Below are positions 925-8,699 of a stretch of 64,000 bases of DNA, one piece after another. Source of the DNA: Justusliebigvirus alia. Both the position numbers and the translations under genes were made by a program. The DNA lies in the sequence record OZ035799.1. The stretch is one strand, 5' to 3'. Every line of letters starts with the position of its first letter. The stretch's first letter is position 1. The notes beneath the pieces are model-generated. The model worked only from the letters and a program-made list of their open reading frames with translations, made no database searches and was not told the origin of the DNA.

Positions 925-1359
925 TTAGTTTAAAATTTCTTTTGCAATGGTAGAAGCAAGTTTTCCATCATATTGATTCGGATACTCTGCTTTAAGGTGT
1001 TTCATCATATCTGGCATTTTCTTGCCTGTCAAGGCAAATTCTTCAGCAATAGCTCGAAGATCATCTTCAGATAGCATTTCTGGCAAATATTTTTCCAGAG
1101 TGGTGATATCACGCATAGCTCGCTCACACTTGCTAATGGAGGCATTAACTTTCTTAAGCGAGTCTAGTTCCTCTTTAGCGTGTGCAATACCAATCTTAAC
1201 AATGTTAATCATAATATCGTCTTCTGATTTGTTTAGATTTGCCTTTTGAGTACGAGCAAGGTCAAACTCACCAATAATATTAGTTAACAAAGCAAAAGCA
1301 CCCTTATCGGTTGTACGTGCTAAGATACGATCTGCTTTCATTTGTGTCACAATAGACAT
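925..1359 (-). CDS. GatB/YqeY domain-containing protein
   Basis: 144 aa; C-terminal ...LEKYLPEMLSEDDLRAIAEEFA...GKLASTIAKEILN resembles the YqeY/GatB C-terminal tRNA-binding-type domain. Confidence 0.55.
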   Translation of the reverse strand: MSIVTQMKADRILARTTDKGAFALLTNIIGEFDLARTQKANLNKSEDDIMINIVKIGIAHAKEELDSLKKVNASISKCERAMRDITTLEKYLPEMLSEDDLRAIAEEFALTGKKMPDMMKHLKAEYPNQYDGKLASTIAKEILN

Positions 1360-1371
1360 TCTATTCTCCTC

Positions 1372-1944
1372 TTATTTGCTAATGCTTTGAGTCTTGTTTA
1401 CAACACGATTTATTGCCAGTGAAGCCCTAGGCTCTGCAATACCTGTTGCATAGATATAAGGATGACCTCTTGGAGACTCCCTCATACCGAATGAACCTAA
1501 TTCTAAACCATATTCATCCTCTATGTCAACCCCAATATTAGTGGGTACTAAATATGTTTTAACTCCATAATAAGTAGAGAAGAAACAGCGCATAGAGTTA
1601 GCATACTCTTCAATTGTAGCATCAGGGTAGAACTCAATCAACTCCAATTTCAAGAAAATATTGAAATGAGTATCATCTAAATTTTCTTCTGTACGGTAAC
1701 ATGGTGTTAGTGCCATATAAGGATTACCTGCTGCAAATTCAAAACCATCCTTCTCCATTTGCAGGAAAGATTGTTCTGCACTAGCTACATAGTATTTACC
1801 GTTAGGATGACCTAATGGGCGATCCTCTTTATTTTCTGGTAGTGTGTACGCCAGTATATCAGCATCCACGAGGTATGGAACTTCTAACATTTGTGCAAAC
1901 CGACCATAGTAATCAATAGCTTGAGCTATTACTTCAACATTCAT
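1372..1944 (-). CDS. class II aminoacyl-tRNA synthetase-like catalytic core protein (minimal, 190 aa)
   Basis: CYRTEENLDDTHFNIFLKLELIEFY resembles class II motif 2 (fRxE...EF) as in AspRS/AsnA-type cores; GLELGSFGMRE resembles motif 3; too short for a complete synthetase. Confidence 0.4.
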   Translation of the reverse strand: MNVEVIAQAIDYYGRFAQMLEVPYLVDADILAYTLPENKEDRPLGHPNGKYYVASAEQSFLQMEKDGFEFAAGNPYMALTPCYRTEENLDDTHFNIFLKLELIEFYPDATIEEYANSMRCFFSTYYGVKTYLVPTNIGVDIEDEYGLELGSFGMRESPRGHPYIYATGIAEPRASLAINRVVNKTQSISK

Positions 1945-2192
1945 GAGCGACCTCCATTGCGGAATGCACGTTTAGTAATGTTCGACATAGTGATCAAATC
2001 TTGAAGCGTCATATCAGGAAAATGCTGTTCAAGAACACCTTCAACAGCGCCTACAATATCTGATAACTCAATAAGTTGCATCAGCTTGCAATCTTGATCA
2101 ATAGCATCTTGAAGTTCATAAAGCTCTTCTTGAATCTTAGCAACAGAACCATATTCCTCTTTGCTAATCTCCTTCAAATGATACCCTGCCAC
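1941..2192 (-). CDS. putative MazG-like nucleotide pyrophosphohydrolase domain protein
   Basis: 83 aa; EELYELQDAI and ELSDIVGAVEGV match the EExxE / ExxD acidic helix motifs of the all-alpha NTP pyrophosphatase fold; weak. Confidence 0.35.
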   Translation of the reverse strand: MAGYHLKEISKEEYGSVAKIQEELYELQDAIDQDCKLMQLIELSDIVGAVEGVLEQHFPDMTLQDLITMSNITKRAFRNGGRS

Positions 2193-2346: not shown

Positions 2347-4977
2347 TCAATATCTGCCAGCGCCAAATACACCAAGTTTAATACCATTGATCGGTAAAGT
2401 GGTGCTTGTTGGTACTTTCTCTGTTGCAACACGGTTGATATCTATAATCTCCTGTACGGTTGTATTCCATTGTAAGCATTTAACACAACGGGTGTGCGCT
2501 ACATACAGTAGGTTTCGCTCTGCCTCTTCTAGTCCTACCCATTCACCAGTCTTTTTATCATAGTTGGAAGGAAAATCATTAGCAACAATAACCTGATCCC
2601 ACTCCAAACCTTTAGACTTGTGTGCTGTAGTCAGTGTGACTTTTGCTGTAGGGGAATTTCTATGCGTTCTAAGTGTATGTGCTATAGTGTTTGCCTTACC
2701 AGAAACTACGATGTTTAACAAGCGTTTAGCATCTGGATCAGCCTCTGCACACTCAACAAATTCATCCCAGTCTGCATAAGGTAATACAGTTTCATGTTTT
2801 ACTTTCTCAATATCTCCTCTCCGAAGAGCATTAACACTATCTACCATAGAGATAAAATCCCTGGTATCTACGTTAATAATAATTTCTTCCCCATCTGCAA
2901 TACGATCCATTGCCTCCATAAGCAAGGTTAAATTCTTGCGAAAGATGATAGTGTAAGGTTTTGTATAGTCTACAACATCTGATTTGTAGCTACCTACTAC
3001 AGTATCAAAGCCTTTACCAACCAAAGGATGACGCAAAGGTTCTTTATCACTTAAAATCATATTGGCAATGTTTGCCACTTTGGGGCCAAAACGGAAGCAA
3101 GCAGTTAATGGAAGCTCTGCCCCATACTTAGCTGTTTCAATCATCATATTAGAGCTACCTCTAAATTGATAAATACAGTTGTGGCTAAGAATTTCATTGC
3201 CAAAGAAGTTAGCAGTATCCTCTACTTCAATATCATAGTAGATACCCTCACTATCTACAATATCCACAATCTCTTCTGCTGTTACAGTATCACCATCTTT
3301 TACCAACACAGACATGCCTTTAAACAAACCCGCTGCCGGAATTAAGTTATATTTGGCAGTGTCTACAGAGGACATGCATTCTTTTAAAGATGCAAACGGA
3401 ACTATTTCAAGGATCTTTTGTGCAAAACTCAATGCTTCACAATAAGAATTGAAATATTTACGTACACGGTAACGACCTTCCAATTTAGCAACACTTACGC
3501 TTACACCTGCTTTAATGAGTGAAGCATAGATCGGCATTTCACTTTCTGTCCACTCAAAACTGACTTGTGTTCCTTTACAACCTTGTGCTCGCAAAGTCAC
3601 TGTTAACATTTTTCTTTCATCTACTGCACAATTGATGCTGTGCCAATGTGGATAAGCAAAATGATAGTCTTTATCCTCTAAAAGTTTAAAACCATTCTGT
3701 CCGAATTGTTCAAAGATGTTATTGATCCTTTCTTGATTAATGCCGCGTGAACTTGCTTCAAATACACAAGTAGGAATGCCATATTGTAAACTGTATGCCA
3801 TTTCTTTTTCCATAGCAGCTTCGCGATTTTCAACAATGTCCAACACCCATAATTTCTGTGCTTTTTCAGAACGTGTACGTTGCCCCAGTTTAGAAAAACC
3901 TTCTTTATCATCGAATTTGTTAGTGATCCCTACTCGGAAACCTAAATCTTTCCTCCACATTAGGTATACCACCATCTGGTCATCTTTCAGAACATAGGAT
4001 GAAGCCCAAATACGATGGTTATGTGTCATATCTAAAGTTTTACCTGTAGCAGTAATAATATTCCTACCTTTTGTACGTGTAGATAAAGTCTTATTTGTTA
4101 CTTTTCTAAATGTAACTTTACCATTAGAATAAGACTCTACCTTATCACCGATTTGCAGGTCTTTCATTGTAACCTGACCATTCTCGGTGTTAAGTACCGT
4201 GTTTTCCGACACACATTGGAATTCATCGCCAACTACCACAATTTGTTTTGCAGATTTAGCATTTCGCAGAATAGACAAGAATGCAGGGTTAACATCCTGG
4301 AATTCATCACCAAAAATAATATCATAACCAAGATCAGCACCAGATAATTCAAACAATTTTACATAGGTGTCATGCGTCATCAAAGTATCTGTGTTAGGAT
4401 CGATGCGCTCTCGCCACAATTGTTTTGCATACTTAACTACTTCTGTAATTAGTTTGTGTTCGTTAATACCTTTTCTTTTAATATCTGCAAGATGTACACC
4501 AGGAAAATGTTTACGGCTGATAAAAGGATCATCCGAAAATTCAAACTTACCTACGGTTTGCTTGATCATTAAACCAATCATAGCACGAGTTAAAAGTGTT
4601 TTCCCTCGTTTATCAATAAGATTATTAATCTTAAATTTCTTTGCTATCTCGCTACCTGTACCTGCAACGTTAACATACTGTCCTTCTGGTCGTGACAGTT
4701 TTGCACGTAAACGATGATCCAGGAATTGATAGCAAATAGAATGCAATGTACGGCATTCTACATTTAGTGGCATCTTACGTCGTGCTTCTTCTGCCATGCT
4801 TTTATTGAAAGCTAAGTAAAGAATGCGATCTTCTGTACTGTTAGCCAGCAAATAAAGTGTTGACGTTTTGCCTGATCCAGATTTAGCTTGGATAGTTAAA
4901 AAGCGATGGTCTGGAAAAGCCTCCTTAATAGCTGTTTGCTCTTCTGTTGGAGTGAAGCTCAACTCTTTCTTAGCCAT
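2347..4977 (-). CDS. SF1 (UvrD/PcrA-like) DNA helicase, intein-containing precursor
   Basis: Walker A AKSGSGKTST, motif II GDEFQD, motif III split as VVVGDEFQ / CIYQFRGSS by an inserted intein; start chosen at MAKKELSF (ATG 4977) directly after the upstream stop. Confidence 0.75.
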   Translation of the reverse strand: MAKKELSFTPTEEQTAIKEAFPDHRFLTIQAKSGSGKTSTLYLLANSTEDRILYLAFNKSMAEEARRKMPLNVECRTLHSICYQFLDHRLRAKLSRPEGQYVNVAGTGSEIAKKFKINNLIDKRGKTLLTRAMIGLMIKQTVGKFEFSDDPFISRKHFPGVHLADIKRKGINEHKLITEVVKYAKQLWRERIDPNTDTLMTHDTYVKLFELSGADLGYDIIFGDEFQDVNPAFLSILRNAKSAKQIVVVGDEFQCVSENTVLNTENGQVTMKDLQIGDKVESYSNGKVTFRKVTNKTLSTRTKGRNIITATGKTLDMTHNHRIWASSYVLKDDQMVVYLMWRKDLGFRVGITNKFDDKEGFSKLGQRTRSEKAQKLWVLDIVENREAAMEKEMAYSLQYGIPTCVFEASSRGINQERINNIFEQFGQNGFKLLEDKDYHFAYPHWHSINCAVDERKMLTVTLRAQGCKGTQVSFEWTESEMPIYASLIKAGVSVSVAKLEGRYRVRKYFNSYCEALSFAQKILEIVPFASLKECMSSVDTAKYNLIPAAGLFKGMSVLVKDGDTVTAEEIVDIVDSEGIYYDIEVEDTANFFGNEILSHNCIYQFRGSSNMMIETAKYGAELPLTACFRFGPKVANIANMILSDKEPLRHPLVGKGFDTVVGSYKSDVVDYTKPYTIIFRKNLTLLMEAMDRIADGEEIIINVDTRDFISMVDSVNALRRGDIEKVKHETVLPYADWDEFVECAEADPDAKRLLNIVVSGKANTIAHTLRTHRNSPTAKVTLTTAHKSKGLEWDQVIVANDFPSNYDKKTGEWVGLEEAERNLLYVAHTRCVKCLQWNTTVQEIIDINRVATEKVPTSTTLPINGIKLGVFGAGRY
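3178..4215 (-). other. intein (about 346 aa) inserted in helicase motif III
   Basis: Block A CVSENTVL at insertion start, block B MTHNHRIW, C-terminal blocks YDIEVEDTANFFGNEILSHN followed by +1 Cys; flanking exteins rejoin to GDEFQ-CIYQFRG. Confidence 0.75.
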
Positions 4978-4978
4978 T

Positions 4979-5455
4979 TCAACCTCTCTTAATTTGTTTA
5001 ACAAGCATAGGAACAAAATCTCGTTTTAAAATTTGTTCAATAATATGATCAGGTAGCTGTTGGAAATTATAATTAAAAGCTACTGTCTCACCTTTAGGTG
5101 TTTCTACCCGCACATATAACATGTTACGAAGTTTATCCACTTGTGCTGTATATTCTAAACCATGTAATTGATGCATTGCAAACATCAAATCATCAGTTTC
5201 AGTTTGGAATCTATCATTTGCTTGCATTAAGGACAAGGTAAAAGGTAGATTTTCCCTAAGAGCCACCTTCTTAGGAACTAGTGAAGGAAAATACTCACCA
5301 ATAACTTCCTGTGTAAGCTGGATACACTCTTTTTCAATTTGGTTTTGTTCCTTAAGTTCACAAACACTTTTTTGTAAAGTGTTAACCTCTTTTTGCAAAG
5401 CTGCTAGTTGAGCACTTAACTTTCTTTTTTGATTACGACCAAAACGTTTAGACAT
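4979..5455 (-). CDS. hypothetical protein
   Basis: 158 aa ORF, basic N-terminus with predicted coiled-coil character; no recognisable motif. Confidence 0.5.
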   Translation of the reverse strand: MSKRFGRNQKRKLSAQLAALQKEVNTLQKSVCELKEQNQIEKECIQLTQEVIGEYFPSLVPKKVALRENLPFTLSLMQANDRFQTETDDLMFAMHQLHGLEYTAQVDKLRNMLYVRVETPKGETVAFNYNFQQLPDHIIEQILKRDFVPMLVKQIKRG

Positions 5456-5463
5456 ATTTCCCC

Positions 5464-5979
5464 CTAGTAAAACCCTTTAACAATCTGTATTAACTCGGCA
5501 CAACGGTTGACCAACTTTTCCTCATACAATACACGTTGTGGCATATGTTGTATAATATACTCCATTTGCTCATGCCATGTCCACTTTTCTTTTTTGTCTG
5601 GGATAACATCACTAGCACGAGAATTATCTTTTAATGTTTGTATAATCCAATTGCTTGGAAAGTGCTCTCCACCTTTCTTAAATGGTTTATAGTGGCCTAG
5701 AGTGAATTGAGAATCCCCTGTTAGAGCACCCAATTTATTTAGATGGATAATCAAACTACGAAACACGTAGTATTCATAGATGTTATCCACCGTATAGCAA
5801 GCATAATATTTCAAGATGCCCTTATCTCGCGGATACTTACCAACATCCAGATTGCACCAGTTGACATTTTCTGGATCATAGTGGTGTTCCTTAAGCCATA
5901 TTTCTCTTTCATCAAAGTCTGGATATATTACCGCTCTGCTTACAGAGTCAACAAGTGGAGATTGAGCATCAAAAAACAT
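5464..5979 (-). CDS. hypothetical protein
   Basis: 171 aa ORF in operon context; no recognisable motif. Confidence 0.5.
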   Translation of the reverse strand: MFFDAQSPLVDSVSRAVIYPDFDEREIWLKEHHYDPENVNWCNLDVGKYPRDKGILKYYACYTVDNIYEYYVFRSLIIHLNKLGALTGDSQFTLGHYKPFKKGGEHFPSNWIIQTLKDNSRASDVIPDKKEKWTWHEQMEYIIQHMPQRVLYEEKLVNRCAELIQIVKGFY

Positions 5980-6000
5980 TATATTTTCCTTATTGGTTTG

Positions 6001-6366
6001 TTAAACGTTTTCTAAATCTTTTAAGGCATTACCCAACGTTAAAACAATAACATCGTTTGCTGCCTCTTCCCCATTAATATTGGTGAAATTTGGTGTGACA
6101 AAAGTAACCATATAAAACTCGTCCACCTGGAAGACAGCAATAACACCGTCCATCTTAACATCTTGACGAAATGAAAAACCAAGCATCTTCTCTTGCAAAG
6201 GCATATCCCCTTCCTTCATTACTGCCAGGGAGTTTTCAGGAATGTTATATTTATCTGCTCCGATGTAGATGTACGTAATGTTATCTTTATCGTGATGATA
6301 CAGGGTTGCTTTTTCCATATCTAAACCTGACAGATCAAATACGTTAATTTCTTGTGTAGTCTTCAT
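6001..6366 (-). CDS. hypothetical protein
   Basis: Start moved to ATG 6366 (MKTTQEINVF) preceded by GGAGAAT SD; longer track ORF would overlap the upstream gene by about 100 nt. Confidence 0.45.
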   Translation of the reverse strand: MKTTQEINVFDLSGLDMEKATLYHHDKDNITYIYIGADKYNIPENSLAVMKEGDMPLQEKMLGFSFRQDVKMDGVIAVFQVDEFYMVTFVTPNFTNINGEEAANDVIVLTLGNALKDLENV

Positions 6367-7446: not shown

Positions 7447-7929
7447 TTAACCACCCAATTGCAAATGTTTAGAAAGAACAATATCCCACTGATCACCACA
7501 ACCGTTATCTATGCGGAACATAATGTACGTATCATCTTCTTCTACGACATATAACACCTCATAGGAATTACAACAGCCTTCCCAATTTTTAACAGCCTCT
7601 GGTGTATCATGTGTAAAAATTTCATTACCATCATATGACCAAAACAAAGGGGTGAGGTTTTCGAACGTCAGTGAAGTAGGGTTTACTTCATCTTTAACTG
7701 CTTCCTCGTATTCTTTATGCGTTTGTACTGCTTTAGTTAGTGTACTCATGTCTATCTCCTTTTCTCCTTCTTGACTATGGAGGATAGCGAACTCTCTAAA
7801 CTCCACTTCACGCCATGTTTTCAGGTAGTGCTTTATAATTTTATCAACATCTACCTGTTCAACATTACTTTTCAAGCAATAGTAATCATGGTCTTCGCCC
7901 ATTCTACCCCATATGCTGTACATTGTCAT
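7447..7929 (-). CDS. hypothetical protein
   Basis: 160 aa ORF; no recognisable motif. Confidence 0.5.
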   Translation of the reverse strand: MTMYSIWGRMGEDHDYYCLKSNVEQVDVDKIIKHYLKTWREVEFREFAILHSQEGEKEIDMSTLTKAVQTHKEYEEAVKDEVNPTSLTFENLTPLFWSYDGNEIFTHDTPEAVKNWEGCCNSYEVLYVVEEDDTYIMFRIDNGCGDQWDIVLSKHLQLGG

Positions 7930-8197
7930 CTGATTGATCCTTTACATTGCTCTTGGTATACACAGGAATAACATCGTCGTGATCTTTATTACTTTCATCT
8001 GTTAAAGCCCAAAACAATTTACCTGCTGGATGTTTAAAGATGTAAGCAATAGGTTCCTTTTCCTGGGCTTCTTTGCTACGGATACCATCCCGCCAGGCAA
8101 GCCAAGTGTAGATCATCATTTCTTGACGCTCTTCTTCGTTAGGCCACATATGTGGTGGGAAGTTTTTATCAAACCATTGCTTAAATTCTTCAGTCAT
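7904..8197 (-). CDS. hypothetical protein
   Basis: 97 aa ORF with AAGGAG SD upstream of ATG 8197. Confidence 0.5.
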   Translation of the reverse strand: MTEEFKQWFDKNFPPHMWPNEEERQEMMIYTWLAWRDGIRSKEAQEKEPIAYIFKHPAGKLFWALTDESNKDHDDVIPVYTKSNVKDQSDDNVQHMG

Positions 8198-8207
8198 AAT
8201 CTACTCC

Positions 8208-8372
8208 TTAGCGTACAAAGTTAACTTCTGCTTCTTTCAGTTTTGACACTTCTACATAACCACCATGATCATCTTTAATCCATTCTTTTCCTTTACGGAT
8301 GATAACAGGATATGTAGAGTGAGTAAGTTTAGGTACAGATCTTTTTGTTTTAGTGATAGAAATGTTTTGCAT
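8208..8372 (-). CDS. hypothetical small protein
   Basis: 54 aa ORF (MQNISITKTKRS...) not in track (under 60 aa); AAGGAG SD 8 nt upstream of ATG 8372. Confidence 0.35.
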   Translation of the reverse strand: MQNISITKTKRSVPKLTHSTYPVIIRKGKEWIKDDHGGYVEVSKLKEAEVNFVR

Positions 8373-8432
8373 AGTAGTCTCCTTAGTAAATTTTACATAG
8401 AGTCTAGATTATTTAGTAGATAGAGTCAATAA

Positions 8433-8699
8433 CTAATTACTGTTAGATCTGTATTCTGTCTTCCATTCACAATGGTAAACTTCAACAGGTTCTAACTTCC
8501 AATGTTCAGGAACTAGTTCAGGACAATATCTACAAAAGAGAAATAGATAGATAACTAAGACAGGTATTAAATAGTAAAATGGTATACGATCATAACCATA
8601 CTTACGAGATAACATGTAGACATATAGATAGGGTATAACAATTAATCCTATAACTATAAGTAAGAAGAGAAGTATAAACCTTAGTGTAGTAACATCCAT
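8433..8699 (-). CDS. putative membrane protein
   Basis: 88 aa; hydrophobic segments FILLFLLIVIGLIVIPYLYVYML and YYLIPVLVIYLFLF; GGAG SD. Confidence 0.5.
   Translation of the reverse strand: MDVTTLRFILLFLLIVIGLIVIPYLYVYMLSRKYGYDRIPFYYLIPVLVIYLFLFCRYCPELVPEHWKLEPVEVYHCEWKTEYRSNSN

Follow-up and report, generated by a model that had tools for sequence, protein, structure and literature searches.

What does a 190-amino-acid (190-aa) protein that resembles the catalytic core of a class II aminoacyl-tRNA synthetase (aaRS) do in a phage, and which of its neighbours does it work with? The question is raised by three small open reading frames (ORFs) near the start of a 64,000-nucleotide stretch of Justusliebigvirus alia DNA (sequence record OZ035799.1; the whole stretch is called the window below). 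An initial annotation, made from the sequence alone, had read the 190-aa protein and a YqeY/GatB-type protein downstream of it as the two halves of an amino-acid ligase and had left a MazG-like protein upstream as a bystander. All three ORFs are present on the minus strand where they had been placed. What stands out at this locus is a widespread and self-contained pair, rather than the YqeY neighbour; the pair consists of a miniature core derived from seryl-tRNA synthetase (SerRS) and a HisE/MazG-like protein of 83 aa. We tentatively read this pair as a two-part enzyme in which the SerRS-derived core would form an adenylate and pass it to RNA or tRNA, together with a partner that would act at a pyrophosphate bond, and we assign this reading as a whole a probability of roughly 0.35.

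1941..2192, minus strand: 83-aa all-alpha protein, probably HisE/MazG-like (phrog_6408, E 2.3e-43)
1372..1944, minus strand: 190-aa miniature class II aaRS catalytic core, SerRS-derived (phrog_4806)
925..1359, minus strand: 144-aa YqeY/GatB-C-terminal-like protein (Pfam YqeY, 30.3 bits; phrog_1460, 1.5e-36)

The genetic coupling between the core and the 83-aa protein is obligate. In 62 of 64 viral loci from IMG/VR, the partner gene shares the strand of the core and is no more than 1.5 kb away, and in 49 of the 64 the two are at most 150 nucleotides apart or fused (three fusions). Fusion of the core to phrog_6408 was also seen in seven of the eight C-terminally extended homologues tested, and the 83-aa family forms the C-terminal domain of MAP_131 of phage Ma-LMM01, while in phiTE and CcrColossus the 83-aa family gene stands directly upstream of the core. 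A fusion protein was modelled as one compact body, with a predicted local distance difference test (pLDDT) of 95.1 and a predicted template-modelling score (pTM) of 0.87. The MazG-like protein is thus a conserved and recurrently fused partner, and the two proteins very probably form a functional pair.

Nor is the pair exceptional among phages, contrary to what had been supposed. We found the mini core in 272 phage records covering at least 10 host genera. Its carriers are Stephanstirmvirinae, Certrevirus, phages of Cronobacter, Erwinia and Pectobacterium, T4-like phages of Acinetobacter, phiCbK-like phages of Caulobacter, jumbo phages of Brevundimonas and the Microcystis phage Ma-LMM01. The 83-aa family, found in 263 phage records, has almost the same distribution. 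An exhaustive search with a hidden Markov model of the core returned, at 50% identity, 1,604 clusters, of which 1,070 reach E <= 1e-30; lengths of 175-200 aa account for most of them, with a minority at 250-275 aa. Two IMG/VR contigs labelled as giant-virus metagenome-assembled genomes (GVMAG; L068 126-968 and L073 2124-3026) also carry the pair as a fusion gene, so that the pair either extends to giant viruses of eukaryotes or sits here on phage fragments that were binned wrongly.

The YqeY protein behaves differently. Its identity, as first proposed, was borne out by Pfam PF09424, where it scores 30.3 bits and so exceeds the cut-off of 27 (E 5.3e-7). When we looked for YqeY within 8 kb of the core using an iterated YqeY profile, it was found only in Justusliebigvirus (L014, L015) and on contig L010, and none is annotated beside the core in phiTE, KARL-1, CcrColossus or Ma-LMM01. 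The 151 phage records that contain a YqeY-like gene are mostly of Vibrio phages and others outside the distribution of the core. YqeY was therefore rejected both as a conserved partner and as the functional second half of the ligase. In J. alia, YqeY is a lineage-specific neighbour that may serve as a tRNA-binding helper. A generic tRNA-affinity role would fit it, to judge from the YqeY domain appended to GlnRS of Deinococcus radiodurans and from the C-terminal tail of GatB. These two systems likewise place a YqeY-type domain beside an aaRS core, whereas here YqeY is a separate protein and a neighbour in Justusliebigvirus and one other lineage only.

Turning to the 190-aa protein itself, it is almost certainly a class II core. 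As a single query it gave nothing above threshold in Pfam, NCBIfam or the PDB sequences (best in Pfam, tRNA-synt_2d at 11.5 bits, below the cut-off of 19.8; no match to NCBIfam serS), and its match to PHROG 4806 ('histidyl tRNA synthetase') reached 2e-71. From 5.8 billion proteins searched, 57 relatives with lengths of 162-261 aa were recovered. A single relative, P0205, passes a Pfam cut-off (tRNA-synt_2, 27.6 bits against 25). Compared with the PDB as a family profile, the core matched class II aaRS only: Aquifex SerRS at 2.5e-5, AspRS at 1.8e-4, then PylRS and AsnRS. Its AlphaFold2 model (pLDDT 95.5, pTM 0.89) has the antiparallel beta-sheet of the class II fold, not the unrelated fold that the initial annotation had allowed for, and the best structural match is SerRS.

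Descent from SerRS is further documented by the alignment of the mini-core family to E. coli SerRS with hhalign (probability 88%, E 2.8e-6), in which residues 14-149 of the mini core are paired with SerRS residues 186-345. The aligned segments are VPYLV with VPYLV, T..LP with TGQLP, SAE with TAE, TPCYRxE with TPCFRSE and FLKLE with FDKVE. A link between the two is provided by gp287 of Bacillus phage G, a 230-aa protein that directly follows gp286, a member of the 83-aa family. The NCBIfam serS model TIGR00414 matches gp287 at 9e-21 over the whole catalytic domain, with a score of 74 bits that lies below the equivalog cut-off of 301; BLASTP against E. coli SerRS gave 1e-14, and comparison with the mini-core family a probability of 97% (E 8.5e-11). 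Because it matches both the serS model and the mini-core family, we regard gp287 as a bridge between the mini core and SerRS.

The catalytic motifs could be placed on the 190-aa protein as follows.

1864..1893, minus strand: motif 1 region, residues 18-27, QMLEVPYLVD; VPYLV is the same as in E. coli SerRS (hhalign) and P23 is nearly invariant
1768..1782, minus strand: S55-A-E57-Q-S59, corresponding to the SerRS 'TAE' (TxE) amino-acid-binding loop, aligned to 'PTAEVP'
1636..1713, minus strand: motif 2, residues 78-103, ALTPCYRTEENLDDTHFNIFLKLELI, aligned to SerRS 'HTPCFRSE...HQFDKVE'
1477..1506, minus strand: strand L147-E156 with E148-x-x-S151, the probable SerRS 'REISS' metal-site strand
1405..1458, minus strand: motif 3, residues 163-180, YIYATGIAEPRASLAINR, aligned to E. 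coli SerRS NGSGLAVGRTLVAV and to phage G gp287 SNTGIATPRILIPF

Conservation was assessed in an alignment of 42 sequences with identity down to 30%, in which 21 columns are invariant. These include S55, E57 and Q58 in the amino-acid-binding loop; R84, F97, K99 and E101 in motif 2; E148, G150, S151 and G153 in the putative metal-site strand; and T167, P172, R173 and S175 in motif 3, whose core reads Y165-A-T-G-I-A-E-P-R173. The catalytic-type residues S55, E57, R84, F97, K99, E101, E148, S151, T167 and R173 are therefore all without exception in the 42 sequences. We take S55-x-E57 to be the TxE loop of SerRS, R84-x-E86 to be motif 2, F97-x-K99-x-E101 to be the second motif-2 strand including the serine-binding Glu, E148-x-x-S151 to be the ExxS metal site, T167 to be the Thr six residues ahead of the motif-3 Arg, and R173 to be that Arg; the roles are those of the T. 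thermophilus SerRS structures and the placement is by alignment. Earlier claims about the motifs fared unequally. The class II motif 2 (TPCYRTEENLDDTHFNIFLKLE) had been recognised correctly, and the description of a minimal core with no anticodon-binding domain is supported, with ATP- and amino-acid-contacting residues invariant across a divergent family. The segment GLELGSFGMRE, taken for motif 3, precedes it and is most simply the ExxS strand equivalent to 'REISS'; motif 3 is Y165-R173. This placement of the strand follows from the strand order in the model and from pairwise alignment.

As for the kinship of motif 2, which had been called Asp/Asn/Lys-type, 12 of the 42 relatives do match the corresponding Pfam family tRNA-synt_2 (best E 7.5e-5) and one matches the Gly/His/Pro/Ser/Thr family; an origin from SerRS fits better, and the weight of the evidence favours a shrunken SerRS over an Asp/Lys/Asn-type ancestor. 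By alignment, the mini core has the SerRS signatures VPYLV, T..LP, (T/S)AE, TPC(F/Y)RxE, FxKxE, ExxS and T-x5-R, but differs from SerRS in that it measures 190 aa against about 325 aa for the SerRS catalytic domain, has no coiled-coil arm or C-terminal tail, has trimmed insertions and a motif-2 loop several residues shorter than that of E. coli SerRS by hhalign, stays far under the serS equivalog cut-off and is paired with a HisE/MazG-like protein. No N-terminal coiled-coil tRNA arm is present in the 190-aa protein, which starts at motif 1, and the 83-aa partner does not match Pfam Seryl_tRNA_N either.

The identity of the partner was approached through an alignment of 19 diverse members of the 83-aa family, ten of which are fused C-terminal domains (nine representatives and Ma-LMM01). 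Y4, H5, I9, K19, E22, E23, E26, E42, D45, T73, F77 and R82 are invariant in 19 of 19. The motif K..EExxE...ExxD (K19/E22/E23/E26/E42/D45) is thus kept in every member, fused ones included; this is the metal site of all-alpha nucleoside triphosphate (NTP) pyrophosphohydrolases, and in the fusion model its positions from K19 to D45 sit on two consecutive helices. The proposal of a MazG-like protein was weak for the 83-aa protein alone (Pfam PRA-PH at E 0.034, 15 bits, below the cut-off of 21.3) and gains from its family, in which nine of 19 members match PRA-PH (best E 4.6e-4) and one matches MazG, while any other Pfam family is matched by at most two of the 19. The top PDB match of the family is HisE (2a7w, E 0.06), followed, after an unrelated protein, by the 95-residue SSO3215 (1vmg, E 0.11), which we take to be MazG-like. 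A comparison of the family with E. coli HisI by hhalign, made against that single sequence, gave nothing. Since all these matches, the one to HisE included, fall below curated thresholds, the 83-aa protein is only a probable member of the HisE/MazG-type pyrophosphohydrolase family. An acyl or peptidyl carrier was also considered and rejected: the 'ELSD' Ser is not among the invariant columns, and because Ala or Thr stands in its place in several members and it is the only candidate, the 83-aa protein has no conserved phosphopantetheine site.

We examined whether the surroundings of the pair give a hint of its substrate. BLAST clustering of 1,814 neighbouring ORFs gave no third recurrent gene. 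A Pfam scan of three genes on each side in 42 dereplicated loci (242 proteins) returned scattered matches to DSP phosphatases (3), RNA ligase (3), HD domains (2) and UvrD helicases (2), and single matches to PTH2, HisRS, NADAR, R2K ATP-grasp and DUF1599. Individual loci add Archease, which is the cofactor of the RNA ligase RtcB, RlaP, an aaRS of the tRNA-synt_1b (Tyr/Trp) type and a CCA-adding enzyme. The downstream proteins of about 320-340 aa in alia, KARL-1 and Vibrio phage 2.275.O are mutually unrelated. In five independent lineages the pair lies within or borders arrays of tRNA genes; counted by group, tRNA genes are close in 6 of 47 (p = 0.03 at an assumed background of 5%), an enrichment too weak for this proximity to be taken as proof of function. 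In CcrColossus gp133 (L004 3743-4597), as well as in L064 and L066, about 85 aa precede the mini core at its N-terminus and resemble the helix-hairpin-helix of the C-terminal domain of the RNA polymerase alpha subunit (PF03118, scoring 27.3 bits where the cut-off is 23.8); helix-hairpin-helix folds are nucleic-acid- or protein-binding modules.

Based on these findings, we propose the following working model, whose catalysis, serine substrate, tRNA acceptor and partner role we infer from the comparisons above. The 83-aa and 190-aa proteins would be one two-part enzyme, which some phages make as a single polypeptide. Its larger subunit would be a SerRS core that has shed the N-terminal arm, part of the motif-2 loop, the internal insertions and the C-terminal tail and would keep every SerRS residue that holds ATP, Mg2+ and the amino acid. 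The core, likely an active adenylate-forming enzyme, would take ATP and a small amino acid, for which serine is the leading candidate, and form the aminoacyl-adenylate. The aminoacyl group would then be passed to the ribose of the terminal adenosine of an RNA, most plausibly tRNA, in a manner that dispenses with the canonical SerRS arm, while the 83-aa partner would offer a second site for Mg2+ and a nucleoside triphosphate, for the nucleotide substrate or product of the reaction. In J. alia, the co-transcribed YqeY may lend generic tRNA affinity in trans. We ranked a tRNA or RNA 3' end first among the acceptors because of the ancestry of the core, the tRNA- and RNA-repair-flavoured neighbourhoods and the associations with YqeY and helix-hairpin-helix domains; as an acceptor it remains tentative, with the odds against it.

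Several observations weigh against this model. Some relatives are nearer to Asp/Lys/Asn-type cores by Pfam. The mini core has neither a tRNA-binding arm nor an anticodon-binding domain, its motif-2 loop is short and acidic (LDDTH), and both subunits are acidic, with a median isoelectric point of 5.0 for the core and 4.8 for the partner. The methods disagree on the register of the E148-S151 strand, which hhalign puts on 'YDLEV', one strand earlier than 'REISS'. Serine is assigned by aligning the core to SerRS residues with roles known from the T. thermophilus structures, and its chances are a little short of even. Neither BLAST clustering nor Pfam scans found a third gene recurring beside the pair. 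The tRNA enrichment is weak, and merging related loci leaves five lineages and, by our estimate, a p value near 0.1; in alia, some 80 kb separate the module from the 15 tRNA genes, two of which encode ordinary long-arm tRNA-Ser. Finally, no pathway known to us joins an all-alpha NTP pyrophosphohydrolase to a class II core, and the role given to the partner is guesswork.

The absence of a tRNA-binding domain from the mini core would be expected if the pair worked without tRNA, a nucleotide held on the HisE/MazG-like subunit attacking the aminoacyl-AMP to give a dinucleoside polyphosphate (Ap4N) or an aminoacyl-nucleotide. It is known that SerRS and LysU can make Ap4N, and Belrhali and colleagues are said to have described Ap4A synthesis by T. 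thermophilus SerRS in 1995. Such a reaction would also agree with the facts that the only universal partner is an NTP-binding or -hydrolysing domain with its metal site intact, that fused proteins imply a small substrate which they share or channel, and that the pair is a self-contained mobile unit without fixed neighbours. The partner might then trim the product, which might serve the infection as a signal or as a counter-signal. We consider both this reaction and its suggested use unlikely: a dedicated enzyme of that kind is without precedent, the tRNA-related context and the helix-hairpin-helix and YqeY associations are left unexplained, and no specific product is predicted. The likeness of the partner to HisE suggests yet another division of labour, in which the pyrophosphohydrolase would be the enzyme, acting on dNTPs, NTPs or an alarmone, and the core a sensor of amino acid or ATP in the manner of HisZ. 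Class II paralogues are established as regulators, namely HisZ for HisG and the HisRS-like domain of GCN2. HisZ, however, is non-catalytic and works with HisG, whereas the residues usually lost in pseudo-enzymes (the motif-2 Arg, the motif-3 Arg and ExxS) are invariant in the mini core and no HisG-like family was seen among the 242 neighbouring proteins, which makes a sensor role distinctly unlikely.

The core could also be an amide or ester ligase that acts on a protein or a small molecule, as do EpmA/PoxA, which lysylates EF-P, AsnA, which joins Asp and NH3, and the SerRS-like carrier ligases. EpmA/PoxA/GenX and AsnA are tRNA-independent class IIb derivatives of about 325-330 aa with protein or ammonia as acceptors; they are poorer structural matches than SerRS and have no pyrophosphohydrolase partner. 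The carrier ligases of the type of Bradyrhizobium Bll0957 (3mey) are proteins of about 300 aa whose ancestor is the Zn-dependent SerRS of methanogen type and whose substrate is a phosphopantetheinyl carrier protein, which they load; here, the partner has no conserved Ser and bears a pyrophosphohydrolase motif. With the 83-aa protein not carrier-like, with no carrier protein, phosphopantetheinyl transferase or EF-P-like target recurring nearby, and with the pyrophosphohydrolase motif unexplained, a ligase of this kind is a long shot. Nucleotide hypermodification, finally, would have the MazG-like subunit turn a (d)NTP into a (d)NMP and the core decorate the base or the sugar with an amino acid. 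It draws on the supply of dNMPs by MazG-like enzymes to phage base-modifying enzymes, for which T4 gp56 is the precedent, on the one neighbour with a DUF1599 'nucleotide modification associated domain' and on a Mom-like gene 7 kb from the pair in L010. Mom offers a documented precedent of amino-acid- and tRNA-dependent DNA modification (PMC13219725), and MazG-like enzymes of jumbo phages are discussed in a jumbo-phage survey (PMC7824862). The pair has no recurring hydroxymethylase, kinase or glycosyltransferase beside it, and it is found in very different lineages (T4-like, phiCbK-like and the cyanophage Ma-LMM01), so that we regard hypermodification as very improbable.

Among the aaRS paralogues known to us (HisZ, AsnA, EpmA, the carrier ligases and GluQRS), none is described as obligately coupled to a domain of the pyrophosphohydrolase type, which points to an uncharacterised reaction. 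It is conceivable, if doubtful, that the pair represents an unrecognised kind of enzyme in which the smallest natural class II adenylate-forming core works as one catalytic unit with a HisE/MazG-type pyrophosphate-bond site and makes something other than a canonical aminoacyl-tRNA, for instance a dinucleotide of the Ap4N type, an aminoacyl-nucleotide, or an RNA end that has been aminoacylated or repaired. Its purpose, in that case, would be to control translation or to contend with the host, in large phages from many lineages. The HisRS urzyme of the Carter laboratory (about 120-140 aa) is likewise a tiny class II core with motifs 1-2 (and 3), and activation of an amino acid could still be within reach of both; urzymes are made in the laboratory, whereas the mini core is natural, widespread, conserved, 175-200 aa long and partnered. 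If active, the mini core would show how small a class II synthetase can become in nature, bear on the debate about ancestral urzymes and offer a compact scaffold for engineering.

Carriers number in the hundreds of sequenced large phages, among them BASEL coliphages, Acinetobacter T4-like and phiCbK-like phages, Ma-LMM01, phage G and megaphages. GenBank already labels the core 'putative seryl-tRNA synthetase' or 'histidyl tRNA synthetase'; these names, like 'tRNA amidotransferase', are over-interpretations spread by annotation pipelines. Full-text literature searches gave no functional study of the pair. They turned up only genome papers that repeat the label 'seryl-tRNA synthetase', one of them with MazG genes a few genes away (PMC8953757), and in the jumbo-phage survey the term 'class II' does not appear and the passages on aminoacyl and synthetase terms contain no such protein (PMC7824862).

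In the window, the three ORFs are packed like an operon of this phi92-like coliphage. The order on the minus strand is UvrD helicase, 83-aa ORF, 190-aa ORF and 144-aa ORF. The stop codon of the 83-aa ORF overlaps the start of the 190-aa ORF in ATGA, with GGAGG just 5' of the overlap; the 190-aa stop and the YqeY start are 12 nucleotides apart, a gap that includes GAGGAG, and no terminator-like site was found between the three ORFs.

2347-5016, minus strand: intein-containing UvrD helicase, directly upstream of the 83-aa ORF

The helicase has Hint and Intein_splicing matches between residues 267 and 613 that interrupt the helicase motifs, and the same helicase is annotated in a relative as 'intein-containing UvrD/Rep family helicase precursor'. 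On the coding strand, two sites match the sigma-70 consensus at 11 of 12 positions (window 1529-1500 and 1032-1004, minus strand); they fall within the mini-core and YqeY coding sequences and are internal promoters or chance matches, the region containing 27 sigma-70 matches against 18.9 +/- 4.4 expected.

The window corresponds to about positions 64001-128000 of the 148-kb genome of a virulent myovirus. Its positions 800-2400 are 100% identical to J. alia OZ035770.1 64800-66400, and over 50 phi92-like coliphages (Stephanstirmvirinae) match them with 98% identity; in relatives, a 316-aa hypothetical protein and NrdD/NrdG come next downstream, beyond the window edge. Four GenBank records named 'Campylobacter phage' with C. 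jejuni as host (MG065639, MG065645, MG065656 and MG065689) are 98.4% identical over the region, and these labels look like mislabelling or contamination and not host range.

Single loci offered some further observations. In Escherichia phage JohannJBalmer (L001 999-3214), genes annotated as macrodomain protein, phosphoribosyltransferase and HAD-like protein stand in a row about 5-7 kb downstream of the pair, beyond the window, and could form a module related to NAD or ADP-ribose. Contig L010 (125 kb; 133-732, 5743-6189 and 7553-8688) has the Mom-like gene 7 kb upstream of the pair, YqeY two genes upstream, and a Macro domain gene and an R2K ATP-grasp ligase immediately downstream. On the short metagenomic contig L008, the fusion gene P0187 is followed by Archease and UDG-family genes (1102-1530 and 1592-2122). 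In two large-phage contigs bearing the pair (L049 1968-2041 and L053 967-1123), ARAGORN called tRNAs with a CUA anticodon ('tRNA-Pyl', amber-suppressor-like) within tRNA arrays.

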